A model generated the notes under the pieces. That model saw only the letters and a program-made list of their open reading frames with translations, did not search any database and was not told where the DNA came from. This document shows, piece after piece, positions 1,002 through 34,483 of a stretch of 64,000 bases of DNA. The DNA is taken from the IMG/VR virus record IMGVR_UViG_3300020049_016424, positions 96,001 to 160,000 of that record; one strand, written 5' to 3'. The stretch is from a virus. Its lineage: Duplodnaviria > Caudoviricetes. Made by a program: the position numbers and the translations under genes. How positions within the stretch are numbered: position 1 is the stretch's first letter; each line of letters opens with the position of its first letter.

Positions 1002-4000
1002 TTATACGACGAATGCGTCCTCCTTCAACATCGTGAGGAGCTCTTGCTCTTCTACGACGCCCTCATCGATCTCTTGCCACAGGTGCTCGAGCCGGCCTGC
1101 GTTCTGCTGCAGATACTTCTCGAGCGGCATGAGCTCGCCGTAGGACGGTCCGACTTCCATGTCCATCTTGAACGGCACTGGGAGCCAGGGGTACTTCTCT
1201 TTGACCCGCGTTTCTCCGTAGTAGGCGAGCCAGGGCTGCAGGCTCTTGAGCAGGCGTTTGGGCCACTGCAGCACCAGCGAGTCGTGCACCGTCAGCAAGA
1301 GCCGCACGCCGTAGGTGTGCAGCGGACGGTGGATGCCCCATTCGGGCCAGGTCTGGTCACTTCGAATGATTTCATCGATCTCGACCAGGCGGTCGATGAC
1401 GATGTCGCTCGAGGTGCTCTGGATCTTGAAGTTGCCGGCCTGGCGCTGGGCGCGGCTGCGATGCCGCGACACCTTTACGAGCGGGAATCGCCGACGACGC
1501 CCGAAGAACGTCTCGACGTACTGATCTCGCGCAACGAGGAAGTGCGTCTCTTCGATGTACTCTTTGATGGCAGGGAACATCCGGAAGAGCAGGTCGATGA
1601 CATCCTGCGCCTCTTTCACGTCCTTGCCGATCGTCTCTGCGATCTTGTTCGCACCCGCACCGTAGAGGATGCCGAAGACGGTGCGCTTGATCTGGGTGCG
1701 AAGGGTGTCGAGCAGCTTCCGGTAGGCCGGGTCGGGGAGGAGGTCCTCTCGTCCGCGGTTCTCGAAGTCCTCGTACGGGTGCCCGAAGACCGTCGACGCG
1801 AAGAACGAGTGCATGTCGAGGCCGTTGTTGAGCGCCTCGATCAGCTTCGGGTCACGGGCATAGGCCGTGAATACCCGCACCTCGGCGCCTTTGTAGTCGG
1901 CGTTGACGACGACGAACTCGTCGGGGTCGTCTGAGATGAACAGCTTCTTGATCGAGAAGCCGCCGAGCTTGCTCGGGGTGTTCTGCAGGTTCTGGTCGGA
2001 GCTCGAAAGGCGTCCGGTGCCCGTACCGTTGATGTGGAACGAGGTGTGGAGTTTGCCGTCGCGCTTCGAGAGCACGCGCGTATTCACGAGGAACGTGTCG
2101 CGGGCCTTCAGCGCCTTCTTGTACAAGAAGAGCTGCTCGAGGAAATAGCTCTCCTTGCGCAGCACCTTCGTCGGCTTGCCTCGTTCGTCCCGCGCCGTGC
2201 CGTCGTCGTACACGATGTAGGGCATGAGCGCCTTCGCAGCGGTGCTCTCGGCGCCCTTCTTCGTCAGCTCCCGGCACTCGACCGGCGCCATTTGCGTGCC
2301 GTCCGGGTGGGTCCAGCGCGCATGGTAAAGCAGCCAGGCGAGGTGTGCGCCGCTGTTGATGTTGAAGGGAGCGCCGTTGACGTAGTGCGTCGGAGCCATC
2401 TTCACGAGCTCGGTCTTGGTGCGCTCGATGACCTCGGTGAGGCCCTTCTCGAGGACCTCGGCGTACTCGAGATCGATGCGCATCCCGTAGTACTCCATGC
2501 GTCCAAGGGCGCGGGAGGCGGGGATGCCGTGACTCTGCATGAGTTTGCGCGTGTTCGAGGCGAGCCCCTTGGCGCGGACCATGCGCCGGGCGTCGACCTC
2601 TCGGATGCGCTCGGTGCGGAGCAGCGTGGCGACCGACGCGTCCTCGGCCTCTCTGCGGAGCCGCTCGCCCTGCAGGAGGGTGAGCTGCCGTGTCACGTCG
2701 CCGTCGACCGCGCCATAGATCTGAAGCTCGCGCAGGGGCACCTTCTCGAACCCGGCGTCGGTCGTGAAGTCGCGTTCCTTCTTCGTCCGCGGGTCTTTGG
2801 GCTCCTCGGGGGCCTTGGCCAGCCGGGCAGGCTTCGCAGGCCGCGTCGACATCAGCAGGGGCTTCGGCGCTGGCTGGTAGGCCTCCCAGGCGCCCAGCGC
2901 CGCGTCATAGGCTTGCAAGGCCTGCGCGTACGCTGCGTCCGTTTCCTCGGTAGCCTCGCGCGCAGGCAGTTTCTTCGGCTTCTCTGGGCGCTTGCCCCGT
3001 TTGGGCAACGCCTCCCAGCCGGCAAGCGCGTCTCGGTACGTCGCCACTGTTGCCGCGTGCGCCGCGACCTGCTCTTCGTAGCGCGCCATCTCCTCGTCCC
3101 ACGCGGCCTTCTCGACCTCGAAGGCCTGCAGCGCCGCGAGGTGCACCTGCAGCGCCTCGAGATACGCCGTATGCTCGAACGCCGGCATGGCACTGAGGGT
3201 GTCGAGCTTGTCCGAAAGCAGGGCGTACTCGGACTCGTCGACGGTCTCGAGGATGTCGAAGAGCTTGTCCTCGTACCCGCAGAAATGCGGCAGCCACACC
3301 GCAGTGAGGGCCTTGAGTCCGTAGTTGCCCTTCTTGTCCTCGTCGAGGAGGTGCTCGCCGACGAGGGTGCACCAACGCACGTTACGCACCGGCATGCCGT
3401 AGCGGAGTTCGATGAACTTGAGATCGAACTTCGCGTTGTGCAGCGTCTTGGGCTTCGGGGACGCGAGCAGCTCCCGAATCTTGACCTCGAGCTCGGGAAG
3501 ACGGTCAAGATACTCGGGGGGCGCGTGGGGGTGGTCGAAGAGAATGGTTGCCGACTGGTGCTTGTCCCAAGCGAAGCAGAACGCGATGATCTTCGAGTCC
3601 GGCTTCTCCGCGCGCAGCGTTGTCGTCTCGGTGTCGATGCTCAGCAGCTGCGCGTCCTTCGCGTCGCCACCGTAGTCGAGGATCTCTTGGACGACTTCGA
3701 GAGCCTCATCCATGTCGACAGGCGTGCGGTAGAGCTTCGTGAGCTCCTCGAGCGACGTCGTGAGCCCGTGCCCACGCTCGAGCCGTTCGTAGCCGTTGAT
3801 GAGGTCCTGCTTGAACGTCTCGTAGAGTCCTTGCGCGGCCGTCAGCGCCTTCTCGGAGAAGGTGACGAGCACGGGGGCGGAGAGCCCCGTCGCCTCGGGC
3901 TCGAGCACCCGGCCGCGCACGTCCGTGTGCTTCGACAAGATGCCGAGCTGCTTGAGCGCGGTGGCGCCGAACGCGACGATCAGCCGCGGCGTCACTTCTT

Positions 4001-4349
4001 CTACGACTTCCTTCAGCCGGGGCGCACAGGCGCGCAGGCAGGCGGCCGTGGGCTTTTCGTCGGGGTTCGCCGGAGCGCATTGCACAGCAGGCGCGATGCG
4101 GCGCGTGTACTTCTGGAAGGCCCGGTGAGCCTTGAAGATCTCGAAGAACGTCGTGCTCATCACGCTGGCGGTGGCGCCGGCGCTGCCGAAGTCCGCGGTG
4201 ACGATGTCAGAAGCCTCAGGCTGCGTGAACACCATCAAGATGTCCGCGTGAAGCGTGTCTTTTCGAACAGGGAGGGAGACCCGCGTGCGTCCGCACTCGA
4301 GGCGCGGACAGGCGGCACACTTTGGGGGTTTCTGCATAGGGAGGTTCAT
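1002..4349 (-). CDS. polA: Family A DNA polymerase with N-terminal uracil-DNA-glycosylase-like domain and 3'-5' exonuclease
   Basis: ExoI IDTET, ExoII HNAKFD, ExoIII YGAVD; TGRLSSSDQNLQN, motif A ADYKGAEVR, motif B KRTVFGILYG, motif C TVHDS; N-terminal CxxC...CAP...C...PRLIVAFGATA resembles family-4 UDG. Confidence 0.95.
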   Translation of the reverse strand: MNLPMQKPPKCAACPRLECGRTRVSLPVRKDTLHADILMVFTQPEASDIVTADFGSAGATASVMSTTFFEIFKAHRAFQKYTRRIAPAVQCAPANPDEKPTAACLRACAPRLKEVVEEVTPRLIVAFGATALKQLGILSKHTDVRGRVLEPEATGLSAPVLVTFSEKALTAAQGLYETFKQDLINGYERLERGHGLTTSLEELTKLYRTPVDMDEALEVVQEILDYGGDAKDAQLLSIDTETTTLRAEKPDSKIIAFCFAWDKHQSATILFDHPHAPPEYLDRLPELEVKIRELLASPKPKTLHNAKFDLKFIELRYGMPVRNVRWCTLVGEHLLDEDKKGNYGLKALTAVWLPHFCGYEDKLFDILETVDESEYALLSDKLDTLSAMPAFEHTAYLEALQVHLAALQAFEVEKAAWDEEMARYEEQVAAHAATVATYRDALAGWEALPKRGKRPEKPKKLPAREATEETDAAYAQALQAYDAALGAWEAYQPAPKPLLMSTRPAKPARLAKAPEEPKDPRTKKERDFTTDAGFEKVPLRELQIYGAVDGDVTRQLTLLQGERLRREAEDASVATLLRTERIREVDARRMVRAKGLASNTRKLMQSHGIPASRALGRMEYYGMRIDLEYAEVLEKGLTEVIERTKTELVKMAPTHYVNGAPFNINSGAHLAWLLYHARWTHPDGTQMAPVECRELTKKGAESTAAKALMPYIVYDDGTARDERGKPTKVLRKESYFLEQLFLYKKALKARDTFLVNTRVLSKRDGKLHTSFHINGTGTGRLSSSDQNLQNTPSKLGGFSIKKLFISDDPDEFVVVNADYKGAEVRVFTAYARDPKLIEALNNGLDMHSFFASTVFGHPYEDFENRGREDLLPDPAYRKLLDTLRTQIKRTVFGILYGAGANKIAETIGKDVKEAQDVIDLLFRMFPAIKEYIEETHFLVARDQYVETFFGRRRRFPLVKVSRHRSRAQRQAGNFKIQSTSSDIVIDRLVEIDEIIRSDQTWPEWGIHRPLHTYGVRLLLTVHDSLVLQWPKRLLKSLQPWLAYYGETRVKEKYPWLPVPFKMDMEVGPSYGELMPLEKYLQQNAGRLEHLWQEIDEGVVEEQELLTMLKEDAFVV

Positions 4350-13267: not shown

Positions 13268-13276
13268 TGCTAGTCT
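13268..13276 (+). promoter_or_regulatory. Extended -10 promoter (TGcTAGTCT), leaderless portal mRNA
   Basis: 6 nt upstream of ATG 13283, no SD; same geometry recurs at other + strand genes. Confidence 0.6.
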
Positions 13277-13282: not shown

Positions 13283-15013
13283 ATGTCCTCGGATTTCAGC
13301 ATCGGCGATTACGCACGGCACGGGGCGGCGCACCCGAACCCCACGTACGACTTCCTGTCGGGCTTCGCGCCGCGGAAGATCAAGGACTTGTTTCGCTGGA
13401 GCGAGTACCTCTACGCGAACGCCCCCGCGATCTTCGCGGCGCTCCAGAAGTTGAGCGCATACCCGGTGACCGAGGTGAAGGTCGCGGCGGAAGGCGCAGC
13501 GCGAAAGGACGTCTGGGAGGACCTCCTCACCGACACCCTCGACGTGCGCAACCATGCGATTCTGACGAACCTCGACCGACGGCTGTATGGCAACTCGTTC
13601 ACATCGATCTACAAGCCGTTCGTACGCACGCTGTGCTGCAATCACCAGGACTGCAAGAAGCTGACGGGCATCACGCACGTCAAGTACACGTTCCAGCTCA
13701 AGACGATGAAGTTCAAATACACGTGCGCGGCGTGTAAGCGAGCGACCGTCGGCGACATCCGCGACCTGAAGAGCGTCGACCGCACGAAGATCTCGCTCAT
13801 CCGCTGGGCCCCTGCGCTCATCGACATCAACTACAACCCGATCACGGGGCGTAGCGAGTACTACTACACGATTCCGTCGGACATCCGGACCAAGGTGGAA
13901 AAGGGCGACCCCCACCTGATGGCCACGATTCCGCTCGAGTTCCTGAAGGCGATTCAAGCGAAGAAGACCTTCAAGTTCTCGCCAGATCAGATCTTCCACA
14001 TGAAGATGCCGGCGCCGGCGGGCATCGACGCGCAGTGGGGTCTGCCGCCCCTCGTGTCGACCATCAAGCTCTTCTTCTATGCTGCAGTGCTCCGCAAGGC
14101 GAACGAAGCGATCGCGCTCGACCACATCGTGCCATTCCGCGTGCTGCACCCCGCGCCGATCTCAGGCAACGCGGACCCGGCGGAGCGCCTGAACATGGCG
14201 AACTGGCAGGCGCAGCTCGAGTCCAACATCAAGCAGTGGCGCCGTGACCCCCTGCACATCATGTTCGCGCCCGCGGCGCTTGGCGTGACGATGATGGGCG
14301 GGCAGGGCCGCTCGCTGCTCACGCTCGGCGAAGTGAAGGACGCCGAAGACGCGATCATCGCGGCGCTCGGCGTACCCCGCGAGTTCCTCTACGGAGGGCT
14401 CACGGTGACGGGCAGCGCCATCACCCTGCGCATGCTCGAGAACCAGCTCGAGAGTGACGCCAAGCAGCTCAACGACCAGCTGGCGTGGATCATCCGGCAG
14501 CTCTCCGTGTTCCTCGAGATGCCGAAGGTGAAGGCGCGCTTCGTGCCCTTCAAGCTCGTCGACGACACCGAGCAGAAGATGGCGCTCCTGAACCTCCAGC
14601 AGGTGACGGGCGGCGCGATCTCGAACAGCCGACTCATGGAGGGCTACTCGGATCTCGACCTCGACGATGAGCGCAAGAAGAAGGAAGAGGAGGCTCTCGC
14701 ACAGGCGAAGAGCGACGCCGATCTTCAGCAGAAGATGCAGCGGCTGCAGACCAGCGCGAGCGCGCAGGCCGAGCAGAGCGCGCAGATGGGCGCGGGACTC
14801 GGGTACAACCCGACTGCGGTCATCCAGCAAGCCGACCAGTACGTGCAGCAGTTCACGCAGATGGACCCAGGTACTCGGCAGTCCCAGATGGACCAGCTGT
14901 CCCAGACCGACCCCGTGATGTACGCGGTTGTGAAGGACCGTATGGAAGCCAACGCGCAGTCCATGAAACACCAGGCGGTCACACAGGCGCGCGCAGGTGG
15001 CGCGCCTATCTGA
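13283..15013 (+). CDS. Portal protein (with Zn-ribbon insertion)
   Basis: 576 aa; YGNSF, FHMK, WGLPPL, IIAALGVPREFLYGG pattern typical of phage portals; first gene of the + strand virion module. Confidence 0.7.
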   Translation: MSSDFSIGDYARHGAAHPNPTYDFLSGFAPRKIKDLFRWSEYLYANAPAIFAALQKLSAYPVTEVKVAAEGAARKDVWEDLLTDTLDVRNHAILTNLDRRLYGNSFTSIYKPFVRTLCCNHQDCKKLTGITHVKYTFQLKTMKFKYTCAACKRATVGDIRDLKSVDRTKISLIRWAPALIDINYNPITGRSEYYYTIPSDIRTKVEKGDPHLMATIPLEFLKAIQAKKTFKFSPDQIFHMKMPAPAGIDAQWGLPPLVSTIKLFFYAAVLRKANEAIALDHIVPFRVLHPAPISGNADPAERLNMANWQAQLESNIKQWRRDPLHIMFAPAALGVTMMGGQGRSLLTLGEVKDAEDAIIAALGVPREFLYGGLTVTGSAITLRMLENQLESDAKQLNDQLAWIIRQLSVFLEMPKVKARFVPFKLVDDTEQKMALLNLQQVTGGAISNSRLMEGYSDLDLDDERKKKEEEALAQAKSDADLQQKMQRLQTSASAQAEQSAQMGAGLGYNPTAVIQQADQYVQQFTQMDPGTRQSQMDQLSQTDPVMYAVVKDRMEANAQSMKHQAVTQARAGGAPI

Positions 15014-15044
15014 GCCGTTCCCCGTATTCCTCTAGAGGCAGGCC

Positions 15045-15884: not shown

Positions 15885-16457
15885 TCACCCCGTGATGGGG
15901 GTCGCGATGGGCGGCGCCGCGAGGCGTGCCTCGAGCTCTTCTTTGAGATGGGTGCGCGGCGGGTGCGCCGCGCCGTGCTGCTTGCGAGGCCGCATCCGCT
16001 TGCGCGGCTTCGAGTCCCGGAAACACGGCTCGCACAGCTTGCGCGGCACGTAGCTCTTCGTGCGCATGTGACTGCGCAGCGCCTGTCCGGCGGTGACGCA
16101 CTCGAGGCCTCCGCAGCACGTGCACACGTACGTCTCGACGACGGTCGCGGCCTCGAGCTGCCCGAGGATCATCGGGTCGTTCACGTTGAAGTACCGCGTC
16201 GGCATGACCTCGCGGAAGCACCCACAGAGGGTGCCCGGGGGCCGTTCGCTGCCGCAGACGAAGCAATCGTGCTTCGACAGGTCGTCCTGTCGGAACGCGC
16301 TGCTCCAGAGCTCGCCGTGTGCACGCAGGGCCTCGACGGTCACCTGGACTCCGGCGTAGCTGAGCTCGACGCGGAGGCGCTCTTCCTGTCCGAGGAAGAA
16401 TGCCGCGACGCAGCGACGTGCGAAGGTCAGAGAGTCGTAGGTTGCAGGAATGCTCAT
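15885..16457 (-). CDS. Cys-rich hypothetical protein (putative early gene)
   Basis: Several CxxC/CxC motifs; AGGAG SD; GGTAAAAG motif upstream. Confidence 0.65.
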   Translation of the reverse strand: MSIPATYDSLTFARRCVAAFFLGQEERLRVELSYAGVQVTVEALRAHGELWSSAFRQDDLSKHDCFVCGSERPPGTLCGCFREVMPTRYFNVNDPMILGQLEAATVVETYVCTCCGGLECVTAGQALRSHMRTKSYVPRKLCEPCFRDSKPRKRMRPRKQHGAAHPPRTHLKEELEARLAAPPIATPITG

Positions 16458-16495
16458 GCTGGGTCTCCTGGTATCTTGATTGGGGAGTACGCTCT

Positions 16496-16521
16496 CTTTT
16501 ACCCTGCGAAGTGCCGTTTTT
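16496..16521 (-). promoter_or_regulatory. Putative phage-RNAP promoter AAAAC-N12-GGTAAAAG
   Basis: Motif repeated upstream of six minus-strand genes. Confidence 0.6.
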
Positions 16522-16573
16522 CGGACGCGGCAATCGCCTTGTTTTCAGGGGGTATGAGAGGGTAGACTGGGCC

Positions 16574-19500
16574 ATGGCCTCGGACCGTACCCCTCCTGTC
16601 TCCGCCGCTCCCGCCGGCCTGCGCCCTGTCGTTATCAGTGCCCGTGAGAAGCGAGAGCTTCTGCGCGAGAAGACGCTCGAGGGGCTGCAGAGCCTGTTTC
16701 CGATCTTGGGGCGGTCGCACGACCTGCACCTGATCTCGGCGGCGGTGAAGCCCACGACGTATTCGAGCAATGAACAGAAGCGTGCGATCCTCGAAGGCCG
16801 CACGCTGTCCGAGCCCATCGTCGGTCGTCTGGTGCTCAAGGACAAGGCGGGCGCAGTCGTCGACACGAAGGACAAGCACATCCTCGCGCACCTGCCGTAC
16901 TTCACCGAGCGCCACACGATGATCGTCGGGGGCAACGAGTACGAGGTACCGAACCAGCTCCGGCTCAAGCCCGGCGTCTACACCCGCGAGCGCGGCAACG
17001 GCGAGTACGAGGCTGCGTTCAACCTGAGCAAGGGCGAGAACTTCCGACTGTCGATGGACCCCGAGACCGGCAAGATGAGTGCGGAGTTCGCTACGACGAC
17101 CGCGCCGCTATACCCCCTTCTGCGCGCGCTCGGTGTGCAGGACACGACCGTGCGGCAGCACTGGGGCGCAGATCTCCTCGACGCGAACAAGAAGAGCGCA
17201 GGCAAGGAAGAAGCGGTGCTGAACAAGCTCGTCGCGCGCTTCCGCAAGCCGAAGGACGCGATGCCGTCGACGCTCGAAGGCAAGCGCGCGTTCGTGCAGA
17301 ACTACTTCGACGGCACGCGCATGAGCACGCAGGTGACCGAGCGGACGCTGGGCAAGGGCTACGATCGCGTGACTCCGGACGCGCTGTTGCGCGCCTCGCA
17401 GAAGCTGCTCGAGGTGCATCGCGGTGAGGCGGAGGAAGATGACCGCGACTCGCTCGAGTTCAAGACCATCCACAGCGTCGAGGACTTCTTCAAGGAGCGC
17501 CTCGAGAAAGACGCGAAGTACTCCGTCAACAACAAGCTCATCCACAAGATGAACCAGAGCAAGACGAAGCAGATCAAGGGCTTCATGCCGAACGCGGCGT
17601 ACACGCGGCCGTTGACGTCGTTCCTCACGAGCAGCGCGATCTCTGCGATCCCCACGCAGTTCAACCCGATCGAGCTCATCGATCACGCCGCAAAAGTCAC
17701 CTCACTCGGCGAGGGCGGCATCACGGCCGACCGCGCGATCCCGTTCGAGGCCCGCAAGGTGCACGGCACGCACTACGGCGTGCTCGACATCGTGCGCACG
17801 CCCGAGTCGGGGCATGCTGGCATCGACCTACGCGCTGCGATGGGCGCCTACCGCGACTCGGCGGGCGAACTCTACGCACACATGAAGGACACCCGCACGG
17901 GCAAGCACGCGCCGGTGCGTGTGACGACGCTCGCACGGAGCTCTGTCGGCTTTGCAGGACAGGGCGAGTCGAGCGCGAAGATGGACGCGCTCAAAGGCTC
18001 GAACGCAGTGTCGCTCGACCGCAAGAAGGTCGACTACGTCCTCGCCGATCACACGCACCAGTTCTCGCCCGCGACGGCGCTCGTCCCGTTCCTTGATGGG
18101 ATGCAGATGAACCGTGCCATCATGGGCAGCAAGTTCCAGACGCAGGCGCTGCCGCTGCTCGAGCGCGAAGTGCCGTTCATTCAGGCCCAGGCGCCCCGCG
18201 CTGGACACAGCATGGAGCGTGAGGTTGCGCGGCTCACCGTGCCCACCTCGTCTGTGCACGGCACCGTCGAGAAGATCGACGCGGACTACATCTACATCCG
18301 GCCGCATGCGGAGAAGCACGCTGCCGTCTCTGACGACCTCATCGAAGCGCCTGCGCGAGAGACAACTCCTGAAGAGACGCTCTGGGCCAAGCAGGCGGCT
18401 TACGAGGACTACGACCTCGACGAAGAAGACGGCCTCGACGATCTCGCAATCACGCCTCCGGAGCATCTCTCGGACGCGAAGATCGCGTCTTCGGACACGG
18501 GGCTCATCAAGCTCCCGTACGACACGCACTTCCCCCTCGCGGCGAAGACGTACTTGCACAATGACGTCACGGCGAAGGTGGGAGACACGGTTACGCCGGG
18601 GCAGACGCTCGCCGAGAGCAACTTCACCCGCAACGGCACGATGGCGCTCGGTAAGAACCTGTCGGTCGCGTACCTCGCCTACTACGGAAAAAACAGCAAC
18701 GACGCGGTCGTGATTTCGGAGGCGGCCGCGAAGAAGCTGACGAGCGAGCACATGTACAAGGAGGTCCTGCGCAAGGGACCTGACACGCTCCAGGGCAAGG
18801 CGAAGTACATGGCGTATTTCGGCATGCGCTTCACGAAGGCGCAGCTCGACAAGCTCGACGACAACGGTGTGGCGAAGCCGGGGGCGCACTTCAGCCCTGG
18901 CGACCCTATCGTGCTCGCGCTCGAGAAAGCGACGCCCTCTCCCGAGGCCGCAATGCTCGGGCACCTGCACAAGAGCCTCGTGAAGCCCTACCGTGACGCA
19001 GCGGTGATGTGGGAGCACCACACGGACGGGGAGGCGATCGATGCGGTGAACGCCGCGCGGCAGGTCGTCGTCACGGTGCGCACGCACGAGGCCATGAAGA
19101 TCGGCGACAAGCTCGCGAACCGCTTCGGCGGCAAGGGCGTCGTGTCCGAGATCATCCCGCAGCACAAGATGGTGCAGGACGAAGCCGGCAAGCCGATCGA
19201 CGTGCTCTTCACGAGCGCGGGCATCATCTCGCGCATCAACCCCGCGCAGGTCGTCGAAGGTGCCCTGGGCAAGGTGGTCGAGAAGACAGGCAAGCCGCTC
19301 GTCATCCCGCAGTTCCAGGACCACAGCAACGTCGAGTACGCAAAGAAGCTGCTGAAGGAACACGGCATCTCCGACAAGGAGACGGTCTATGACCCGGTCT
19401 CGGGGCGCAGCATCCCGAAGGTGTTCGTCGGACGCAGCTACATCCTCAAGCTCTTCAAGAGCGGCGAGACGAACTACGCAGCACGCGGCGTCACGAGCTA

Positions 19501-21154
19501 CGACGTGAACCTGCAGCCGACCAAGGGCGGCGACGAAGGTGCGAAAGGCCTTGGCAAGATGGAGATCAACACGCTGCTCGCGCACAACGCGCGCAACGTG
19601 CTCAAGGACGTGCTCACCGTGAAGTCCGAGAAGTCGGACGAGTACTGGCGTGCGCTCGAGTTCGGGCTGCCGCCGCCGGCGCCGAAGACGCCGTTCGTCA
19701 CGCAGAAGTTCAACGCAATGCTCACCGGCGCCGGCATCAACGTCGACAAGCGCGGCAGCATCGTCGGTATCCATGCGCTGACCGATGCGCACGTGAAGGG
19801 GCTCTCGAGCGGCGCGCTCACGCTGCCGGAGCTCGAGAAGAGCAAGAGCTTCATGGTCACGTCGAAGAACCTGAAGCCCGAGACCGGCGGCCTGTTCGAC
19901 CCCGTGCGTACCGGCGGGCTGTCGGGCACGCGATGGTCGCACATCGAGCTGCCCGAGGCTTCGGTGAGCCCCGTGTTCGAGGAGCCCGTACGGCGCCTCC
20001 TCGGCCTCACCAAGGCGAGCCTCGAGAAGGAGCTGATGGACAAGGGCGGCGACGCCCTCAAGAAGAAGCTCAACCGCCTCGACCTCGACAAGCTCGAGAC
20101 CGAGCTCGAGGACAAGACGCGCACGGCACGCGCCTCGGCGCTCGACGACGTCGTCAAGCAGCTGAAGTACGTCCGCGCGCTGAAGTCGCACGGCGTGAAG
20201 GCCGGCGACGCGTATTTCCCGACGCTCGTGCCGGTCATCCCGCCCATCATGCGGCCGATCCTGCCGAGCCAGCGCTCGGGAGAGCTTCAGATCTCAGATG
20301 CGAACTACCTCTACCGCGACGTGGCGCTGGCCGCAGCGGGCCTGAAGGCCGCGAAGGAGACCGAGCTCCCCGAGCTCATCGGCTCCGCACGCAAGCACCT
20401 CTACGACGCCCACGCAGCGCTCGCAGGCACCCGCGAGCCCACATCACCGCAGCTTCAAGGCCGCGGCGTGAAGGGCTTCGTCACGCAGGTGACCGGCGCA
20501 GGCAGCCCGAAGAGCGGCTTCCTCTTCAAGAAGATCTTGAAGCGGCAGCAAGACCTATCGGGCCGCGCCACCGCGACGCCCGACAACACCCTCGACATGG
20601 ACCAGATCGGGGTGCCCGAGGACATGCTCTGGAAGACGTACGACAAGTTCGTCATGAAGGGCCTCATCGGGCAGGGCTACGCCGCGACCCGCGCACAGGA
20701 GATGGTGCAGGAGCGCCACCCTGCCGCGAAGGTCGTCTTCGACCGAGAGCTAAAAGAACGGCCGGTGTTCGTGAATCGAGCACCGTCGCTCCATAAGCAC
20801 AACTTCGTGGCCGCCTTCCCTGTAGCGGTTTCTGGGACCTCATTCCGCGTGAACCCCTTCATCGAGAAGGGCATGAACCTCGACTTCGACGGCGACGCCA
20901 TGCAGCTGCATGTGCCGGTATCCCCGAAGGCCGTCGAGGAGGCCAAGAACCTCACGCTGAGTAAGCTCCTGTTCACCGACAAGGCCCGGGGCGATCTCAT
21001 CATCTTCCCACAGCACGAAGCCATCATCGGCGCCTACCTTGCTACTTCGGGCGCCGCGAAGGGCGCTTCGAAGAAGTTCAAGGACAAGGCAGCCGCGATG
21101 GCCGCGTACAAGCGGGGCGAGATCACCCTCGAGACTCCCATCGAGATCGGCTGA
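16574..21154 (+). CDS. Phage multi-subunit RNA polymerase: beta fused to N-terminal half of beta'
   Basis: Beta motifs TPESGHAG, NRAIMGSKFQTQALPL, LGKNL, GDKLANRFGGKGVVS, SRINPAQ, GKMEINTL; beta' motifs GGLFD, HIEL, VPVIPP..RP, SGRA, NRAPSLHK, catalytic NLDFDGD; start set at MASDR (TAGACT 5 nt upstream). Confidence 0.95.
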   Translation: MASDRTPPVSAAPAGLRPVVISAREKRELLREKTLEGLQSLFPILGRSHDLHLISAAVKPTTYSSNEQKRAILEGRTLSEPIVGRLVLKDKAGAVVDTKDKHILAHLPYFTERHTMIVGGNEYEVPNQLRLKPGVYTRERGNGEYEAAFNLSKGENFRLSMDPETGKMSAEFATTTAPLYPLLRALGVQDTTVRQHWGADLLDANKKSAGKEEAVLNKLVARFRKPKDAMPSTLEGKRAFVQNYFDGTRMSTQVTERTLGKGYDRVTPDALLRASQKLLEVHRGEAEEDDRDSLEFKTIHSVEDFFKERLEKDAKYSVNNKLIHKMNQSKTKQIKGFMPNAAYTRPLTSFLTSSAISAIPTQFNPIELIDHAAKVTSLGEGGITADRAIPFEARKVHGTHYGVLDIVRTPESGHAGIDLRAAMGAYRDSAGELYAHMKDTRTGKHAPVRVTTLARSSVGFAGQGESSAKMDALKGSNAVSLDRKKVDYVLADHTHQFSPATALVPFLDGMQMNRAIMGSKFQTQALPLLEREVPFIQAQAPRAGHSMEREVARLTVPTSSVHGTVEKIDADYIYIRPHAEKHAAVSDDLIEAPARETTPEETLWAKQAAYEDYDLDEEDGLDDLAITPPEHLSDAKIASSDTGLIKLPYDTHFPLAAKTYLHNDVTAKVGDTVTPGQTLAESNFTRNGTMALGKNLSVAYLAYYGKNSNDAVVISEAAAKKLTSEHMYKEVLRKGPDTLQGKAKYMAYFGMRFTKAQLDKLDDNGVAKPGAHFSPGDPIVLALEKATPSPEAAMLGHLHKSLVKPYRDAAVMWEHHTDGEAIDAVNAARQVVVTVRTHEAMKIGDKLANRFGGKGVVSEIIPQHKMVQDEAGKPIDVLFTSAGIISRINPAQVVEGALGKVVEKTGKPLVIPQFQDHSNVEYAKKLLKEHGISDKETVYDPVSGRSIPKVFVGRSYILKLFKSGETNYAARGVTSYDVNLQPTKGGDEGAKGLGKMEINTLLAHNARNVLKDVLTVKSEKSDEYWRALEFGLPPPAPKTPFVTQKFNAMLTGAGINVDKRGSIVGIHALTDAHVKGLSSGALTLPELEKSKSFMVTSKNLKPETGGLFDPVRTGGLSGTRWSHIELPEASVSPVFEEPVRRLLGLTKASLEKELMDKGGDALKKKLNRLDLDKLETELEDKTRTARASALDDVVKQLKYVRALKSHGVKAGDAYFPTLVPVIPPIMRPILPSQRSGELQISDANYLYRDVALAAAGLKAAKETELPELIGSARKHLYDAHAALAGTREPTSPQLQGRGVKGFVTQVTGAGSPKSGFLFKKILKRQQDLSGRATATPDNTLDMDQIGVPEDMLWKTYDKFVMKGLIGQGYAATRAQEMVQERHPAAKVVFDRELKERPVFVNRAPSLHKHNFVAAFPVAVSGTSFRVNPFIEKGMNLDFDGDAMQLHVPVSPKAVEEAKNLTLSKLLFTDKARGDLIIFPQHEAIIGAYLATSGAAKGASKKFKDKAAAMAAYKRGEITLETPIEIG

Positions 21155-26572: not shown

Positions 26573-28369
26573 ATGAAGACGCTCGGCCAGCACCTGCTCG
26601 ATGACGCCGTACCCGCCGGCTATCGCCCACAAGGGGCTTGGACGCGCGGGGCGCTCTACAAGCAGATGGTGCGGCTCGCGCAAGACGACCCCGAAACGTA
26701 CACGCAGACCATCGTCCGGGTGAAGAACCTGGGCGATGAGCTCGCGACGCTCGAGGGCATCAGCGTCGGTCTCGACGACATCGCACCGATCCACGCGACG
26801 CGGGATGCCGTGATGAAGCCCGCGATCTCCGCCTTCAACAAGGCGACGACCGACACGCAACGCCGCAAGGTCGTCATGGACACGCAGGCGAAGCTCGTCG
26901 CGCAGACCAAGGACCATCCCGGAACGCTCGGCGCGATGGCGCGTTCAGGCGGCCGCGGTAACCAGGTGCAGCTGATGAAGACGGTGGGCAGCCCCGTGGC
27001 CGCAAACGACGAGCGGGACGTGGCGCAGCCCTGGCTGATCCGCAACTCCTACAGCGAGGGCCTCAAGCCCGCAGACTGGTGGACCGCGAATCGCGAAGCG
27101 CGCATGGCCGCGGTGAAGTCGACCATCGAGGTCACCGAGCCGGGCGACCTCTCGAAGATCATCGTCAACAACACCACCGGCCAAGTCGTCACCACGCACG
27201 ACTGCGGCAGCTACAACGGCCTCGAGTTCCAAACGACGTCGTCTGAGATCTACGACCGATACCTCGCAGGCGCCGCGGGCGGCTTCCCGCACAACACGCT
27301 CATCGACAAACGCGTCGTCGACGAACTCCGCAAGAAGAACATCACGAAGGTCATCGTGCGCTCTCCGATGACGTGCGAGGCTTCGACCGGCGTGTGCCAG
27401 CTCTGCATGGGTCGCGCCGTCACCGGCAAGCTCAACCGCATCGGGGACAACGTCGGCGTGCGCGCTTCGCACGCGATGGGCGAACCCCTCACGCAGCTCG
27501 CGCTCAACGCCAAGCACGGCGTGCGCACAGCGGGCGGCGCCGCGGGCGTCAGCGGTCTCGAGGGCTTCCGGGCGCTGATCGAAAGCCCCGTGACCTTCAA
27601 GGGCAAGGCGGCGCTCGCGCCGGTGAAGGGCACCGTAACGAAGATCGAAGCCGCGCCCCAGGGCGGTACGTTCTTCCACATGGGCGAACACCGCGTGCAC
27701 GCACTACCGGGGCTGCGCGCCGTCGTGAAGGCGGGCGACTCAGTGCATGCCGGGGACGTGCTCTCCGAAGGCACGCCGCGTCCGATGGAGGTCGTGGCGC
27801 TCAAGGGCCTCGGTGCCGGTCGGGACTACCTGGTGAACCAGCTCGGCACGATCTACAGGGACGCAGGCATCGACGTCGATCGCCGGCACCTCGAGATCCT
27901 CGCCAAGAGTACGCTGAATCACATGAAGGTCGACAAGATCGGTCAGAACGACCATGGCGTCGTTCGGGGCGACGTCATCACCTACAACAAGTTCCGGCAG
28001 ATCGTGAAAGACTCGATCGAGGACACGCCGCTTTCAGACGCCGAGGGCGAGTACCTCGCGGCGCCGGTGTTCGAGCACCTTCCAGGCACCCGCATCACTT
28101 CGGGCCTGATGGCCGATCTACGCCGGCGCGGTGTGAAGTCCGTGAAGACCGCCGCGGGCGCTCCGCAGGTGTCGCCCATCATGGCGCCTGCCACGCGTAA
28201 TCCGCTCTTGAACCCCGACTGGATGGCCCGCATGGGGCATCGCCTGCTCAAGCAGACGCTTCTCGACGCGGCGCACCAGGCGCACACGAGCGACATTCAC
28301 GGCGCATCGCCGATTCCCGCCATGATCTATAGCGCCGAGTTCGGCGAAGGTTTCGACGGGCACTACTAA
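26573..28369 (+). CDS. Phage RNA polymerase beta' C-terminal half
   Basis: SGGRGN, SYSEGL, TEPGDLSK (bridge helix), DCG, RSPMTC..GVCQLCMG, GEPLTQLALNAKH (trigger loop), DRRHLEIL. Confidence 0.93.
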   Translation: MKTLGQHLLDDAVPAGYRPQGAWTRGALYKQMVRLAQDDPETYTQTIVRVKNLGDELATLEGISVGLDDIAPIHATRDAVMKPAISAFNKATTDTQRRKVVMDTQAKLVAQTKDHPGTLGAMARSGGRGNQVQLMKTVGSPVAANDERDVAQPWLIRNSYSEGLKPADWWTANREARMAAVKSTIEVTEPGDLSKIIVNNTTGQVVTTHDCGSYNGLEFQTTSSEIYDRYLAGAAGGFPHNTLIDKRVVDELRKKNITKVIVRSPMTCEASTGVCQLCMGRAVTGKLNRIGDNVGVRASHAMGEPLTQLALNAKHGVRTAGGAAGVSGLEGFRALIESPVTFKGKAALAPVKGTVTKIEAAPQGGTFFHMGEHRVHALPGLRAVVKAGDSVHAGDVLSEGTPRPMEVVALKGLGAGRDYLVNQLGTIYRDAGIDVDRRHLEILAKSTLNHMKVDKIGQNDHGVVRGDVITYNKFRQIVKDSIEDTPLSDAEGEYLAAPVFEHLPGTRITSGLMADLRRRGVKSVKTAAGAPQVSPIMAPATRNPLLNPDWMARMGHRLLKQTLLDAAHQAHTSDIHGASPIPAMIYSAEFGEGFDGHY

Positions 28370-28961: not shown

Positions 28962-29034
28962 TTCCGTGTCTCGCCTGTCCACCGCCACGTGTGCGGTGCA
29001 ACTGCCCCAAGATCACATCGTGGAGGAAATGCTC

Positions 29035-30219
29035 ATGACTCAGTCGCCGCTCTACAAGCGCGCATTCGTCCGAGGCCTCAACGCCCACCTCATGCAGGTC
29101 GGCGAGGTCGCGTACACGTCGAAGGAAGCGGCGGACTACGCGGCGGACTTCGTCGCGGACAACACCGGCATGCCGGACCCGTACTTCGAGGGAGACAAGG
29201 TCTCGCTCAAGGTCGCGTCCGACCTCTGCATCAGCCTGAGCCGCGCTGCGGACGCCCTGAACGCCCAGACGGGCGGGGCCTCGGCGGAGCTCAGCAAGCA
29301 GGCCGCGGCCATCGACCCCGTCGCGCAGGCGACCGTCGACGCGTCGAACATCATGCACAAGATCGCGTACGAGACCGAAGGTCCGAACTCGGTCGAAGCT
29401 GCGGCTGCGCACAGCTCGCAGGCGGCGCTCGACGCGCACAACCGCCCGGCCGGCTACGCCAACACCGGTGTCGGCAACTACATCGACAAGGGCCGCGGCC
29501 AGGTCGGTGTCGAAGAGCAGGTCCAGCACGGCGCGCCCACCGAGGGCGGAAGCAACTCGCCGATCGAGAACACCTCGAAGATGGGCGGCGTTCTCAAGGC
29601 AGCGGCTGCTGGCGGACGCACGGGCACCGCGCCGAACACCGTCGCGAACGCGGCGGCGCACAGCGACCAGGCTGCGCTCGACAACAAGAACCGCCCCGCG
29701 GGCTACGCCAACACCGGCGTCGGCAAGACCAGCCTGACCGCGTCGGGCTCGGCCGTCCTCGGCGCCGAGACTTCGGTGAAGCCGAAGGACAAGCCGATGA
29801 CCGGCAGCAACAGCGTCAGCGCCCCGAAGACTGCGGCCGAGCGCCACCTCGAGCGTACTGCAGCGCTCCTGATCCAGTTCCTGCCGACCGCGCTCACGGA
29901 CGTGCAGAAAGTCGCGCACATCCGTGCGTGCGCCGCGCTCACCCCTGCGCAGCAAGTCAACTACCTCACGAAGGTCGCCAGCGTCAGCGGCATCGACCAG
30001 GCCACCGTCGCCCAGATCCCGGACGCGTTCTTCTCGGCTGTGAAGACGGCGAGCGAGGGCGAGGACGACTACGAGGTCGCGCAGGCGCTCGAGGCAGCTG
30101 CGGCCGAGCTCGGCAATCGCGCGGAGCACAAGGAAGACGCCGCCGTGCGCAAGCTCACCGAAGAGAAGACTGCCGCGGCCCTCGCGCAGCTCAGCGCCGC
30201 GACTGCTCGCGTCGCCTGA
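29035..30219 (+). CDS. Putative head scaffold/inner-head protein with internal duplication
   Basis: GGAGG SD; two copies of AAAHS.QAALD..NRPAGYANTGVG; many K-x-A motifs. Confidence 0.75.
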   Translation: MTQSPLYKRAFVRGLNAHLMQVGEVAYTSKEAADYAADFVADNTGMPDPYFEGDKVSLKVASDLCISLSRAADALNAQTGGASAELSKQAAAIDPVAQATVDASNIMHKIAYETEGPNSVEAAAAHSSQAALDAHNRPAGYANTGVGNYIDKGRGQVGVEEQVQHGAPTEGGSNSPIENTSKMGGVLKAAAAGGRTGTAPNTVANAAAHSDQAALDNKNRPAGYANTGVGKTSLTASGSAVLGAETSVKPKDKPMTGSNSVSAPKTAAERHLERTAALLIQFLPTALTDVQKVAHIRACAALTPAQQVNYLTKVASVSGIDQATVAQIPDAFFSAVKTASEGEDDYEVAQALEAAAAELGNRAEHKEDAAVRKLTEEKTAAALAQLSAATARVA

Positions 30220-30239
30220 AGTCGCTTCTCGTCTCTGGA

Positions 30240-30279
30240 AGCCTGCTCGCAGATCTTGCGAGCGGGCTTTTCCTTTTTC
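30240..30279 (+). terminator. Intrinsic terminator
   Basis: GCCTGCTCGCA-loop-TGCGAGCGGGC followed by TTTTCCTTTTT. Confidence 0.8.
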
Positions 30280-30327
30280 GGGTAGCATGCTCATGGCACG
30301 CCGCCCTTTTGCCCACGAGATTCCCGC

Positions 30328-33300
30328 ATGACGAAGATCGCTGCCCTTGGCCCGGCCATCGATGCCCTCGAGCAGACGCCGACGAATGCATCGAAGGCTC
30401 AGTTCTTCGAACAGCACGTGACCGACCAGGCCTACCAGGCGTTCGACGCCCGGCATCCCGACCTGACCGAGTCCATCGTCACGTTCAAGATGGTGACGAG
30501 TGATCCCGACGCGGGCACGGCCGTCGGCGCCTTCATCCTCGATCTCGCTGGCGAAGCTGCTTACGTCCCCGTGACGTTCCATGCCGACGAGGTCTCGCCC
30601 CTCGACATCCTCTTCGTCGTGAACAAGGGCACCTTCGTGCCCTTCACGCAGGAGTGGGTCGAGGAGGTGCTGCGCAACAGCAGCCAGGGCCTCGGCGAAG
30701 CCCAGAAGCTGCCGCCGACGGTCGCGACCGACATGGACATCCGCAATCTCGTCGTCCCGCCGACGACGGGTCGCTACTCCTACGCGAGCGCCGTCGAGCG
30801 CGGCACCCCCGAGCAGAAGGTGCTCTGGAAGATCGCGGCAGACTCGACGCACCCGCTCGGTGTGTCGATGTGCAAGCGCGCAGAGGAAGCCTTCGACCCG
30901 GGCATGTGGGAAGGCTTCGTCGCGCAGTTCTCGCAGCTCAACGGCATGACGCCGGGCGTCGCGCTCGATCAGGGCCAGATGGACATGAACATCATGTCCA
31001 AGATGTACAAGAGCTACGTCAAGACCTGGATGATGCCGCAGGAAGCTGCGGCGGCTGGCGTAGGCGGGATGGCTCCGGGCGGGCAGCCTGGCGCGCAACC
31101 GGGCATGGCGCCGGGTGCTGCGCCGCAGCAGCCCCCTGCCCCCGGTCCGAACATGCAGCAGCCGGGAGCTGCAGCCCCCGCACCGATGGCGCCGGGCGCC
31201 GCGCAGGCTGCTCCGGGACAGATGCCCGCGGCTGATCCGATGAAGATGGGCTCTGCCGCGTCACAGGGGCTGTTCGCGCGGCTCGGCGGCAAGGCCGACG
31301 ACCTCGCAGGCGTCGTTGCAGAGAACGCTGCTCTCGGCGGCCTCGGCGGCGCGCTCACCAGCGTCTACGACGACGACTACTCGGACATGGGCAGCCGCGC
31401 ACTCAAGGGCTCGCTCGGCGGAACGCTCGGCGGCACCCTCGGGCGCGCGCTCGGCGGCCGCATGAACACGCGCTACCCGCAGCTCGAAGGCCTCGGTGAT
31501 GAGATCGGGCAGCTCGCGGGGCTCGGCATCGGATCTATCTCCGCGGCACGCCCCGGCAGCATCTCGAACGCGCTGCGTCCGAACAGCGCACCACAGCAAG
31601 ACCCCTACGGGGGCATGTACCGCTACGCGGCTTTCGAAGACCCGAAGCCGATGTTCAAGCACGCGTTCGCCGAGCCGCACGAGCGCCCGCTTCGCCTGCT
31701 CGACTACCTCGAGCGCGCGCCGAACAACGTGAAGACCGCGTTCGCGACCGTGCTGAAGAAGCACGTGCCGCTGCTCAAGCTCGCCGCTCAGATCTATGGC
31801 GACAAGGAGCTCGTCGCCGCGCTCAAGCCGCGCGCGAAGGTTGCGGGGCAGACCCCCGAAGGGGGCCTGAAGATCGTCCGCTCGACCGACGGCGTCCAGG
31901 CCTTCGGGCCTCGTGCTGGCGCGGCGTTCCGCGGCGTCGCGATGCGCGGGTACTACTACGAGGACGACGGCAAGCGCCCTGCGCGCAACCAAGCCGTCAT
32001 CAAGCAGGAGTACCATGACGCGCACGATGCGCGCGAACCGGGCGTGTACCTGCTCTGGGCGTTCGACGGCAAGCGCGTGCCCGCGCTCATCGTGCAGGAT
32101 CCGCTCGACCTCGAGAACAGCGAGCGGCAGTACTCGCCGAAGAACACCTCGCAGGTGAAGCCGGTCATCACGAAGACGCCCGGCACCTTCGCGACGCACC
32201 CCGAGCCCGATTCGAAGGGCAATCTCAACTGCCCGGAGCCGGATGTGGAGCGCTCCCACAAGTCCGAGCGCCTCGTGCTGCTCGGCGACGGGCGCAACTT
32301 CACCGTAGACCAGATCGTCGGCGAACAGATGACTGAGAAGCTGCTCGAGGGCACGCCGCTGTACGGGCGCGTCTGGGGCAACAAGACCGCGAAGGTCGCC
32401 TCAGGGTATGGCGCCTTCATCTGGCAGACGGGCTCGCACTACTACGCCACCAAGCCGGTGACGCTCGCAGAGATCGCGACGTCCGCAGACGGCGTCATCA
32501 CGGGCAAGTTCCGGCACGGCAAGCGTTTCCGCATCGACCCGCGCTCGCCGATGAAGCGGCCCGTGCGCCCGCGCGACTCCGGCTACGTCCTGATCCCTGC
32601 ATCCTGGCGCTGGGTCCCGCTCAAGGATATGCCCTACGAGTCCCGCAACGACTTCATCACGACCCCGTCGCAGGTCATCGACCTCGGCATGAACGCGATG
32701 GGCGCGATGGGCGCGCGCAAGGTGCGCGTAGACAACGCGGGTGCCCGCACGTTCTCGGTGCGCAGCGCGCTGTCCGAGGACAAGGGTCCGCTCGAGAAGA
32801 GCGCCGCCATCAAGTACCTCGCTGATCTCGAGAGCATTTCGGGCGCGGACGCTGAAGCCTGCGTGAAGCTCGCCGAGCTCGAGCGGAGTGTCACGGCGCA
32901 CATCATCCCGAAGCCGCTGCTCTCGAAGTTCGCGGCGCTCGTGAAGCGTGCAGACCCCGCGATGGACCAGGCGCTCGGAGAGACTCTCGGAGGCCTCGAG
33001 CAGCAGGTCGCGCAGCTCCAAAGCCAGCTGCAGGTCCTGCAGACGGTGCAACAGCGCGCGCAAGAAATCGCATCGGGCGGCGGCATGGCCCCGACCGACA
33101 TGCAGCAGACCGACCCCGCCATGCCGGCAGCGGGCGGCACGCCTGCTCCTGCGGCCCCCGCGACGCCGGCCCCCGGAGCGCCCATGGACCCGAACGCGGC
33201 AGCCGGAGCTCCTCCCGCGGCGCCCGCACCTGCGCCCATGGACCCTGCCGCGGCCCAAGCCCCTGCAGACCCGAATGCCCCGCCCGCAGACCCGAACGCG

Positions 33301-33783
33301 GCACCTGCAGACCCGAATGCTGCGCCCATGGATCCTGCGATGCAGGACCCCAACGCGCAGGGCATGCCGCCCCAGCAGCCCCCGCTGCCGATGATGCCCG
33401 AGGAGGGCCCGTCGTCCGACGAGATCGCTCTGCAGATGAACCCCGAGTTTCTCGGGCAAGCGGCCTCGATGAAGGATCAGGGCGTGTTCGACATGTCGGC
33501 CATCACAGATCTTGAGGGCGCAGCGCAGCGCGCGGGCAACAGTCCGTCGCCGCTCGGCGACCACAAAGACAATCTGGTGGCGACAATCGACGATCTTGGT
33601 CGTACACTCTTGCTATTGCAGATTCGTGCGCCCGAACTCGAGGCGCAGCTGGGCTCCGAGGGGTTCAAGACTCTCGAAGAACAGGCACGGAACACCTTCC
33701 TCGGGCTGGGTCAGTTGCAGTCCGAGCTGAAACAAAACAGCACGGCTCTGGTCAATGCACAAGGAACAAACAGCGCTGCGTAA
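30328..33783 (+). CDS. Large putative inner-head protein (1151 aa) with P/A/Q/M low-complexity linkers
   Basis: Head-module location; many K-x-A; glycine-zipper segment; DPNAAP repeats. Confidence 0.75.
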   Translation: MTKIAALGPAIDALEQTPTNASKAQFFEQHVTDQAYQAFDARHPDLTESIVTFKMVTSDPDAGTAVGAFILDLAGEAAYVPVTFHADEVSPLDILFVVNKGTFVPFTQEWVEEVLRNSSQGLGEAQKLPPTVATDMDIRNLVVPPTTGRYSYASAVERGTPEQKVLWKIAADSTHPLGVSMCKRAEEAFDPGMWEGFVAQFSQLNGMTPGVALDQGQMDMNIMSKMYKSYVKTWMMPQEAAAAGVGGMAPGGQPGAQPGMAPGAAPQQPPAPGPNMQQPGAAAPAPMAPGAAQAAPGQMPAADPMKMGSAASQGLFARLGGKADDLAGVVAENAALGGLGGALTSVYDDDYSDMGSRALKGSLGGTLGGTLGRALGGRMNTRYPQLEGLGDEIGQLAGLGIGSISAARPGSISNALRPNSAPQQDPYGGMYRYAAFEDPKPMFKHAFAEPHERPLRLLDYLERAPNNVKTAFATVLKKHVPLLKLAAQIYGDKELVAALKPRAKVAGQTPEGGLKIVRSTDGVQAFGPRAGAAFRGVAMRGYYYEDDGKRPARNQAVIKQEYHDAHDAREPGVYLLWAFDGKRVPALIVQDPLDLENSERQYSPKNTSQVKPVITKTPGTFATHPEPDSKGNLNCPEPDVERSHKSERLVLLGDGRNFTVDQIVGEQMTEKLLEGTPLYGRVWGNKTAKVASGYGAFIWQTGSHYYATKPVTLAEIATSADGVITGKFRHGKRFRIDPRSPMKRPVRPRDSGYVLIPASWRWVPLKDMPYESRNDFITTPSQVIDLGMNAMGAMGARKVRVDNAGARTFSVRSALSEDKGPLEKSAAIKYLADLESISGADAEACVKLAELERSVTAHIIPKPLLSKFAALVKRADPAMDQALGETLGGLEQQVAQLQSQLQVLQTVQQRAQEIASGGGMAPTDMQQTDPAMPAAGGTPAPAAPATPAPGAPMDPNAAAGAPPAAPAPAPMDPAAAQAPADPNAPPADPNAAPADPNAAPMDPAMQDPNAQGMPPQQPPLPMMPEEGPSSDEIALQMNPEFLGQAASMKDQGVFDMSAITDLEGAAQRAGNSPSPLGDHKDNLVATIDDLGRTLLLLQIRAPELEAQLGSEGFKTLEEQARNTFLGLGQLQSELKQNSTALVNAQGTNSAA

Positions 33784-34483
33784 CACCCCGAACCACCGTC
33801 AATGCGCGGTGGTAGGGGATCTGCGCGAGTTGGAGACGCCCGAAGAGCGTGCGCTCGACTACCTTCTGAGCGGCATCCTGGACGGCGAAGTCTCGCAAGA
33901 GACGCTGAGCGCCGTTACTCAGGCGTGGCAGTCCTATCAGGACGTGCGGGTCCGGGCGCTCTTCAACGCGTGCTTGCTCGGCGGCGCTACCCCCGAACAG
34001 CTCGAAGAGGTGTTCCACGTCTCCGTCGAGGAGACCGCGGCGTACACACACCTGTTCTTCGACGTGTCCGTGTTCCAGAACAGCTTCCACGTGTTCGGAT
34101 ACATCGCGGGACTCGCGGAAGAGTCTGAGCGGGCGTTGCTCCAAGAAGGCTACACCAAGGGCTTTCGGGCGCTGCAGTTCCGCTACGCTCCAGCTCCCGA
34201 GGCGCTCTCCCCCGAGACGGTTCTCGGCCAGGTCTTCGAGGCAAACGCGCGCGAGTACATCCGGCAGCAGGCCATCGTCCCTCCGACGAGCAAGGCGGCG
34301 GCAGGGCTGCGCGCGCTCAACAAGCAGGTGCTGGCCGAGGCGCAGGCGCTCGACAAGCTGGGCGCAGGCGCGAAGGCTGCGGCGGCGGCCGAGAAGAACA
34401 ACCTCGAGTTCATCATCCAGACCGGGCCGTCCAACCCGACGCTCGAAGACCTTCTCCGGCACGGCGCCGAGCTCGCGCACTGA
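33755..34483 (+). CDS. Hypothetical protein, head module
   Basis: 242 aa ORF in operon. Confidence 0.7.
   Translation: MHKEQTALRNTPNHRQCAVVGDLRELETPEERALDYLLSGILDGEVSQETLSAVTQAWQSYQDVRVRALFNACLLGGATPEQLEEVFHVSVEETAAYTHLFFDVSVFQNSFHVFGYIAGLAEESERALLQEGYTKGFRALQFRYAPAPEALSPETVLGQVFEANAREYIRQQAIVPPTSKAAAGLRALNKQVLAEAQALDKLGAGAKAAAAAEKNNLEFIIQTGPSNPTLEDLLRHGAELAH

Follow-up and report, generated by a model that had tools for sequence, protein, structure and literature searches.

We analysed bases 96001-160000 of a 182.8-kb viral record of 65% GC, and this whole stretch of 64,000 nucleotides is referred to here as the window. Our subject is a two-gene RNA polymerase (RNAP) encoded among the head genes of this phage and, within its beta part, an acidic loop that carries three copies of the pattern K-x-A-[AS]. 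A preliminary description had proposed that the RNAP is packaged in the head and that the prohead protease excises the loop, thereby activating the enzyme in the mature virion. The locus holds the following genes and elements.

13271-13276: TAGACT-type -10-like hexamer upstream of the portal ATG, with the 5-6-nucleotide spacing also seen for RNAP
13283-15013, + strand: portal protein, 35% identical to gp204 of Salmonella phage Arash (tblastn against Arash)
16563-16568, + strand: TAGACT -10-like hexamer, 5 nucleotides upstream of the RNAP ATG
16574-21154, + strand: fused RNAP beta and beta'-N gene, 1526 amino acids from the ATG at 16574; frame open back to 16400
18305-18499, + strand: acidic hypervariable loop of 65 amino acids between two strands of the beta sandwich-barrel region
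18314-18325, + strand: site 1, K-H-A-A, in EKHAA (18311-18325), 3 residues past IRP; position kept in nearly all homologues
18389-18400, + strand: site 2, K-Q-A-A, in AKQAA (18386-18400), internal
18479-18490, + strand: site 3, K-I-A-S, in AKIAS (18476-18490), 7 residues before GLIKLPYD
26573-28369, + strand: RNAP beta'-C subunit, Pfam Rpb1_5
42422-43351, + strand: major capsid protein, 38% identical to Arash gp226 (tblastn), with one K-E-A-A at residue 33
47298-48185, + strand: stand-alone InPase in the virion module, PF18823 (E = 4e-32)

The polymerase genes and the acidic loop

The ATG at 16574 is likely the true start of the frame 16400-21154, as the database cluster representative (P0002, 1526 residues) begins there. 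The encoded chain matches Pfam Rpb2_3, Rpb2_6 (E = 4e-43), Rpb1_1 and Rpb1_2 (E = 2e-20) and has the catalytic core features of multisubunit RNAPs, namely the hybrid-binding/DPBB region of beta and, near its end, the beta' metal site of the NADFDGD type (NLDFDGD, residues 1493-1499); it also contains GDKLANRFGGKG. Because domains of both Rpb2 and Rpb1 are present and the chain ends after NLDFDGD, it is a fusion of beta with beta'-N. The enzyme is thus not split in the manner of the phiKZ/AR9 type: beta and beta'-N form a single 1526-residue chain, and only beta'-C is separate. The fusion is 36% identical to Arash gp206, and the gene order (helicases, portal, beta/beta'-N, beta'-C, head module, capsid) is common to the two phages, with the RNAP genes embedded among the portal and head genes and co-oriented with them. 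A nucleotide search with the RNAP gene against a phage collection gave no match, so that relatives of this RNAP are visible only at the protein level; a single-protein scan of viral contigs returned six loci, just one of them with a capsid gene.

Both the portal and the RNAP gene carry the hexamer 5-6 nucleotides before the ATG and lack a Shine-Dalgarno sequence. Six more genes have the hexamer at position -13 relative to the start codon, again without a Shine-Dalgarno sequence; at this fixed position about 0.3 would be expected by chance among the 119 genes, which were called by third-position GC. The pattern fits co-expression as leaderless messages, presumably late ones, and the RNAP genes are encoded and co-oriented with head genes under late-type signals. 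In its extended form, (G)TG-n-TAG(A/T/C)CT, the -10-like element lies 5-7 nucleotides before the start codon of eight genes without a Shine-Dalgarno sequence, namely portal, RNAP, the genes starting at 49070 and 55483, and four genes outside the window. We regard the element as a candidate class of leaderless late promoters that the phage polymerase may read.

The loop is bounded by IDADYIYIRP (nucleotides 18275-18304) and GLIKLPYD (nucleotides 18500-18523), and cellular beta subunits aligned over the region have ~16 residues in its place. It contains 19 Asp or Glu and 4 Lys or Arg residues, a net charge of -15. From the composition of the phage's own proteins, K-x-A-[AS] is expected 0.0008 times per residue, or ~0.05 times in 65 residues; three copies are observed. 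We modelled residues 500-1110 of the long frame with AlphaFold from an alignment of 48 sequences (predicted template modelling score 0.70); the loop emerges between two strands with a mean predicted local distance difference test (pLDDT) score of 37-50, against 83-94 in the flanking 10-residue blocks, which is consistent with exposed sites. It holds no recognisable domain, and hence nothing that resembles the cargo of polyvalent proteins. We had also considered that the loop marks the point at which beta is split at the gene level in other phage RNAPs and dropped the idea, as the YerA41 match shows an unsplit beta.

These results agree with the preliminary description on the placement of the RNAP genes, on the leaderless promoter geometry that they share with the portal gene, and on an acidic loop with EKHAA, AKQAA and AKIAS between conserved beta segments. 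They part from it at the beta'-C subunit, for which a further site had been suggested. The VKTAA is indeed present there, at residue 525, but relatives read VKITM or VKVTM at this position (four orthologues aligned); we rejected it as a conserved site, and it is probably a chance occurrence.

Loop variation among homologues

To see how the loop varies, we aligned 120 beta/beta'-N fusions found among the matches listed, all from uncultured phages (contigs of at most ~207 kb, 47-100% identity). The strands that flank the loop are nearly invariant, but the loop itself measures anywhere from ~10 to more than 300 residues, and most of it cannot be aligned. The loop has 0.0189 K-x-A-[AS] per residue and the remainder of these proteins 0.0005, a ~38-fold enrichment. 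At least one strict motif is present in 106 of the 120; the 14 without one contain near variants, for example KTSA, KTGA or KLGA. The first site lies 3 residues after IRP in nearly all homologues, including those with minimal loops, which resemble R-P-D-G-P-K-T-A-A-P-A and have this one motif. The position of the last site is retained in most loops of at least 40 residues; in 28 of these 52 loops a strict motif stands at each end, and the majority of the others still have K-x-A at position 3 with the following residue changed.

The content of the loop is far less constant. An InPase domain lies inside the loop of P0012 (PF18823, E = 3e-22), that of P0086 gives a weak GNAT match, and other loops contain a module with a G-H-S-x-G signature (hydrolase-like) or a P-loop-like (kinase-like) module. 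In P0086, P0082 and P0027, the motifs separate the domains. The inserts of P0012, P0093, P0101, P0102 and P0107 are 29-35% identical to the stand-alone InPase of the window, which itself has K-S-A-A four residues before its domain and K-V-A-F ~10 residues after the matched domain and so looks like a packaged pro-enzyme. That homologous InPases occur either as a separate gene of the virion module or within the RNAP loop supports a view of the loop as a site that accommodates cleavable cargo or propeptides. Earlier work linked InPase domains with polyvalent proteins that are packaged, and suggested that they remove pyrophosphate in support of early transcription (PMC5512222).

Charge varies with length. 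Loops of 31-100 residues are acidic (-0.13 per residue), which, with the -15 in 65 residues seen in the window, speaks for the mechanism of the preliminary description: the loop would mimic nucleic acid and keep the polymerase inactive up to the point at which, in the mature head, the protease cuts out the loop. However, 54 of the 120 homologues have loops of at most 30 residues, with a net charge of about zero and no segment to remove, and in others the loop is occupied by enzymes; such a loop is absent from the polymerases of Arash, Vibrio phage D69 and G004, a 146-kb relative. Since the content of the loop is not conserved, its role as an autoinhibitor or DNA mimic that gates activity is unsupported, and we hold it to be very doubtful.

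Two further observations concern the composition of these chains. A peptide module of ~20 residues (R-M-E-R-R-Q-T-G-T-E-T-P-E-E-R-A-E-Y and variants) recurs in otherwise unlike loops, as if shuffled (P0004, P0005, P0007, P0008, P0010, P0021, P0028, P0075 and P0076). Many homologues, among them P0009, P0013, P0015, P0029, P0048, P0098, P0106 and P0110, are 300-600 residues longer; because some of the long ones carry LAGLIDADG or intein Pfam domains, the RNAP gene is also an intein host in this clade.

The head-module motif and the prohead protease

We scanned all 400 a-x-b patterns in the proteins of the phage. In nine head-module proteins (28966-41551), K-x-A ranks first (73 occurrences for an expectation of 30, z = 7.8); it falls outside the top eight in the other genes. 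The longer form K-x-A-[AS] occurs 43 times in 3951 head-module residues and 28 times in 31064 residues elsewhere, making it ~12 times denser in the module; the commonest residue two positions upstream of the motif Lys is Leu. Pfam and PHROG scans of ten head-module proteins yielded no usable names. The relevant genes are listed below.

28966-36956, + strand: head-module proteins rich in K-x-A-[AS], comprising the next four entries
28966-30219, + strand: 8 K-x-A-[AS]
30328-33783, + strand: 6 K-x-A-[AS]
34579-35364, + strand: 5 K-x-A-[AS]
36225-36956, + strand: 3 K-x-A-[AS]
36972-39929, + strand: prohead protease of the gp21/assemblin fold (by fold match) with a helical C-terminal region, 985 amino acids
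~37479-38561, within 36972-39929: Hint/LAGLIDADG intein directly after the conserved S-M-G
39969-41551, + strand: two small head proteins, scaffold or internal-protein-like, with 8 and 5 K-x-A-[AS]

The same clustering marks the head modules of Arash (53% GC; 7 sites in gp220, 6 in gp223 and 5 in gp225), D69 (44% GC; 10 sites in one protein of 269 residues) and G004 (35% GC), and the adjoining tail genes of D69 and G004 have almost no K-x-A-[AS]. Because it is seen in such distant relatives, at 35-53% GC, composition cannot explain it. Outside the window and far from the head module, a protein of 415 residues (80553-81800 of the genome, + strand) contains six K-x-A-[AS] where 0.34 are expected; it is probably another packaged and processed protein.

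The head-module statistics bear on a second explanation of the loop, by which it is an ordinary lineage-specific insertion like i4 and i9 of Escherichia coli beta, retained in the enzyme, and the K-T-A-A beside IRP is a structural turn that was duplicated upon insertion. Cellular RNAPs do tolerate large surface inserts, the motif of the minimal loops follows directly on a conserved strand, and a short target duplication would yield functionless flanking repeats. Yet unrelated head proteins in four genomes have this four-residue pattern as their dominant code. Loops that are otherwise unalignable (47-81% identical) retain it at their two ends and between their domains, and the remainder of the RNAP holds it at a rate of only 0.0005 per residue. 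We therefore consider an ordinary insertion unlikely. The loop carries the motif of the head proteins, has kept it through evolution and appears to expose it, all features of a prohead-protease substrate.

The protease that would read this code was found through its fold. Its N-terminal 169 residues are 47-86% identical across the 120 homologues listed, most of which are intein-free, and we modelled the intein-free orthologue P0124 with AlphaFold (39-sequence alignment, mean pLDDT 80). Residues 1-225 of the model matched T4 gp21 (5jbl_B) with a Z-score of 12.6 and a root-mean-square deviation of 3.1 Å over 147 of 164 residues; next in the fold search came the proteases of varicella-zoster virus, pseudorabies virus and herpes simplex virus (Z 5.6-6.2). 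H115, S166 (in S-M-G, beside the intein) and D174 are invariant in the 39 orthologues. Conserved K-x-A sites flank the protease domain; they are located in the low-confidence segment before it and in the helix after it. Since searches by sequence family were empty (Arash gp222, the orthologue, matched nothing in Pfam or the PDB), the protease was identified by the fold search alone.

About a quarter of the orthologues listed have an insert after S-M-G (~950-1170 residues in total), and the others, of ~600-650 residues, are intein-free. Another protein, the 242-residue product of 33755-34483 (orthologue of Arash gp219, which is absent from the Arash virion list), was tried as the protease and rejected; its ESM Atlas model has low confidence and is not that of a protease.

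Proteases of this fold recognise L/I-x-E in T4 and V/L/I-x-A|S in herpesviruses. The corresponding motifs are A-x-E in SPN3US and S-x-E in phiKZ (PMC5694885). Because K-x-A-[AS] shares the P3-x-P1 geometry of these same-fold codes, a cut after Ala is the natural guess, and by this analogy the scissile bond probably follows the Ala of K-x-A.

Packaging, proposed maturation and known systems

Evidence that this type of RNAP is packaged comes from Arash. In mass spectrometry (MS) of its virions, no protein was detected more often than gp206, the beta/beta'-N orthologue (3516 spectra, 100% coverage), and gp216, the beta' protein, gave 1210 spectra (PMC10585845). As carry-over is possible, this evidence is good but not clean. 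By extension, packaging and K-x-A processing are plausible in the window phage. In the RNAPs of Arash, D69 and G004 the loop is short and lacks the motif, so that loop processing would be a derived trait of the clade to which the window belongs.

In Arash (19902-19920 of locus L002) and D69 (15004-15025 of locus L010), the motif stands elsewhere: beta begins M-P-K-[KS]-A-S-[ED]-L, with K-x-A-S at residue 3. This N-terminal motif is absent from 119 of the 120 loop-bearing homologues, and the alternation hints that the polymerase needs one tag somewhere. The G004 RNAP has no motif anywhere, in neither the loop nor the N-terminal form; in the 10-kb flank before the G004 RNAP match, an open reading frame of 348 residues (L008 +6732) contains six K-x-A-[AS], although the RNAP itself has none.

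The N-terminal motif could mean that the motifs are docking or capsid-targeting signals, bound by the protease or the scaffold core so that the RNAP is recruited, with loop cutting absent, partial or confined to a single site. The reversal between Arash and D69 on one side and 119 of the 120 loop-bearing homologues on the other fits a need for at least one tag, and the capsid-targeting sequence (CTS) peptides of T4 end in the protease motif (PMC5694885). However, the N-terminal form occurs in only two genomes, G004 has neither form, and multiple sites that bracket separate domains are better explained by release. Docking without release from the loop is, in our estimate, quite improbable.

The reading that we prefer is that the loop is a slot for cargo or propeptides and is actually cut by the prohead protease, to which we assign a probability of about 55%. 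It builds on what is directly established here, namely the motif statistics, their conservation, the disorder of the loop, the fold of the protease and the domain inserts. The two-gene RNAP would be made late, together with portal and head proteins, and packaged into the prohead. There, the gp21-fold protease would recognise K-x-A followed by Ala or Ser and cut after the Ala, and the three sites in the exposed, disordered beta loop would be cut during maturation. The expected products are an N-terminal piece of ~583 residues and a beta-C/beta'-N piece of ~888 residues, which would stay assembled in the folded enzyme, and two released acidic peptides of 25 and 30 residues with charges of -4 and -10. 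The loop would thus be a disposable slot, filled in the window phage by an acidic propeptide that may serve capsid targeting or charge balance, like the acidic internal peptides of T4, and in relatives by InPase, GNAT or the hydrolase-like module with G-H-S-x-G, which would be freed as co-injected cargo.

Several points weigh against this reading. Virion MS or isolates exist for just two relatives, Arash and D69; both have the short loop without the motif, and the coverage of Arash gp206 in virion MS is 100%. The 'virion' list of Arash comprises 116 proteins, ribonucleotide reductases included, and its authors note the possible carry-over of abundant non-structural proteins (PMC10585845). G004 shares the head code and has a motif-free RNAP; therefore, processing is not required for this type of polymerase. 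The Pfam models S77, S78 and Clp had no match in the genome (S77 and S78 at E up to 1). The lone K-T-A-A of the minimal loops could be a structural turn, and nicking beta within a conserved domain might harm the enzyme.

The earlier proposal is supported in part, by the head code, the presence of a prohead protease (the N-terminal domain of 36972-39929, as modelled from its intein-free orthologue), the retention of K-x-A in a loop of variable length, the detection of the Arash orthologue in virions and the promoter geometry; its beta'-C site and autoinhibition find no support.

Processing of packaged proteins by prohead proteases is well known, and the systems of T4 (gp21), phiKZ (gp175) and SPN3US (gp245) are among the closest. 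As in the window phage, a protease of this fold is encoded in the head module, its domain is itself flanked by sites, a short motif of the P3-x-P1 type is repeated in scaffold or internal proteins and at propeptide boundaries, and small acidic peptides are products, as they would be here. The window phage differs in its motif, K-x-A-[AS] rather than x-x-Glu, in a protease that has an intein and a long helical C-terminal region and no Pfam S77 match, and in having its site in an internal loop of a conserved enzyme domain instead of a terminal propeptide. Herpesvirus assemblin has a distantly related fold (Z ~6), and the window phage would share with it Ala at P1, Ser or Ala at P1' and a determinant at P3; the window phage has Lys at P3, and its scissile bond is a predicted one.

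Among virion RNAPs, those of the phiKZ-like phages are likewise multisubunit enzymes with beta and beta' among the head genes; they are packaged and ejected, and they provide a precedent for a processed subunit. In 201phi2-1, the prohead protease takes an N-terminal propeptide off the virion RNAP beta by trimming at TFE-275; its counterpart in SPN3US is not processed (PMC5694885). Enzymes of this kind consist of four or five split subunits, and the known trimming is N-terminal, whereas the window phage has two genes and two or three putative cuts within the loop. Arash (PMC10585845) and D69 share the synteny from helicases to capsid and the clustering of K-x-A-[AS] in the head module, but their RNAPs are only 33-36% identical to that of the window and have the M-P-K-x-A-S N-terminus in place of loop motifs. 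The InPase and GNAT domains in the loops of relatives are typical of polyvalent proteins, a type of packaged and injected protein whose several domains are thought to be separated by cleavage (Iyer et al. 2017, PMC5512222). In the clade of the window, the carrier is instead an essential polymerase subunit, and processing would be by the prohead protease, not by an embedded MPTase.

What appears to be new is a Lys/Ala code for the gp21 protease fold, together with the predicted cuts within a loop that belongs to a conserved polymerase domain and the use of that loop for diverse inserts; our literature search found no earlier K-x-A prohead code or loop excision in a phage RNAP, which is not proof of absence. 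We also put forward, more tentatively and at somewhat less than even odds, a version that spans a large clade of uncultured phages of ~150-200 kb. One surface loop of the virion RNAP beta would serve as a general cargo slot, in which peptides or enzyme domains (InPase, GNAT, hydrolase-like, kinase-like) placed between K-x-A|A/S sites ride into the capsid and are freed by a gp21-fold protease of previously undescribed Lys/Ala specificity, leaving a nicked active polymerase and injectable effectors.

If the sites are cut, a new specificity (Lys at P3, Ala at P1) would be added to those of gp21-fold prohead proteases, and, as that specificity is readable from sequence, maturation products would become predictable for a whole clade of uncultured phages. 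Virion maturation would here include the nicking of an essential enzyme within a conserved domain, and embedding cargo in a loop of a packaged enzyme would be a new route of loading the capsid. This route would bear on how phages deliver early-acting proteins and would lend itself naturally to the packaging of foreign proteins in phage heads.

Away from the head genes, the window also encodes a family A DNA polymerase (1002-4349, - strand) with an N-terminal domain of the uracil-DNA-glycosylase superfamily (Pfam UDG, E = 9e-10) joined to its exonuclease and polymerase domains.

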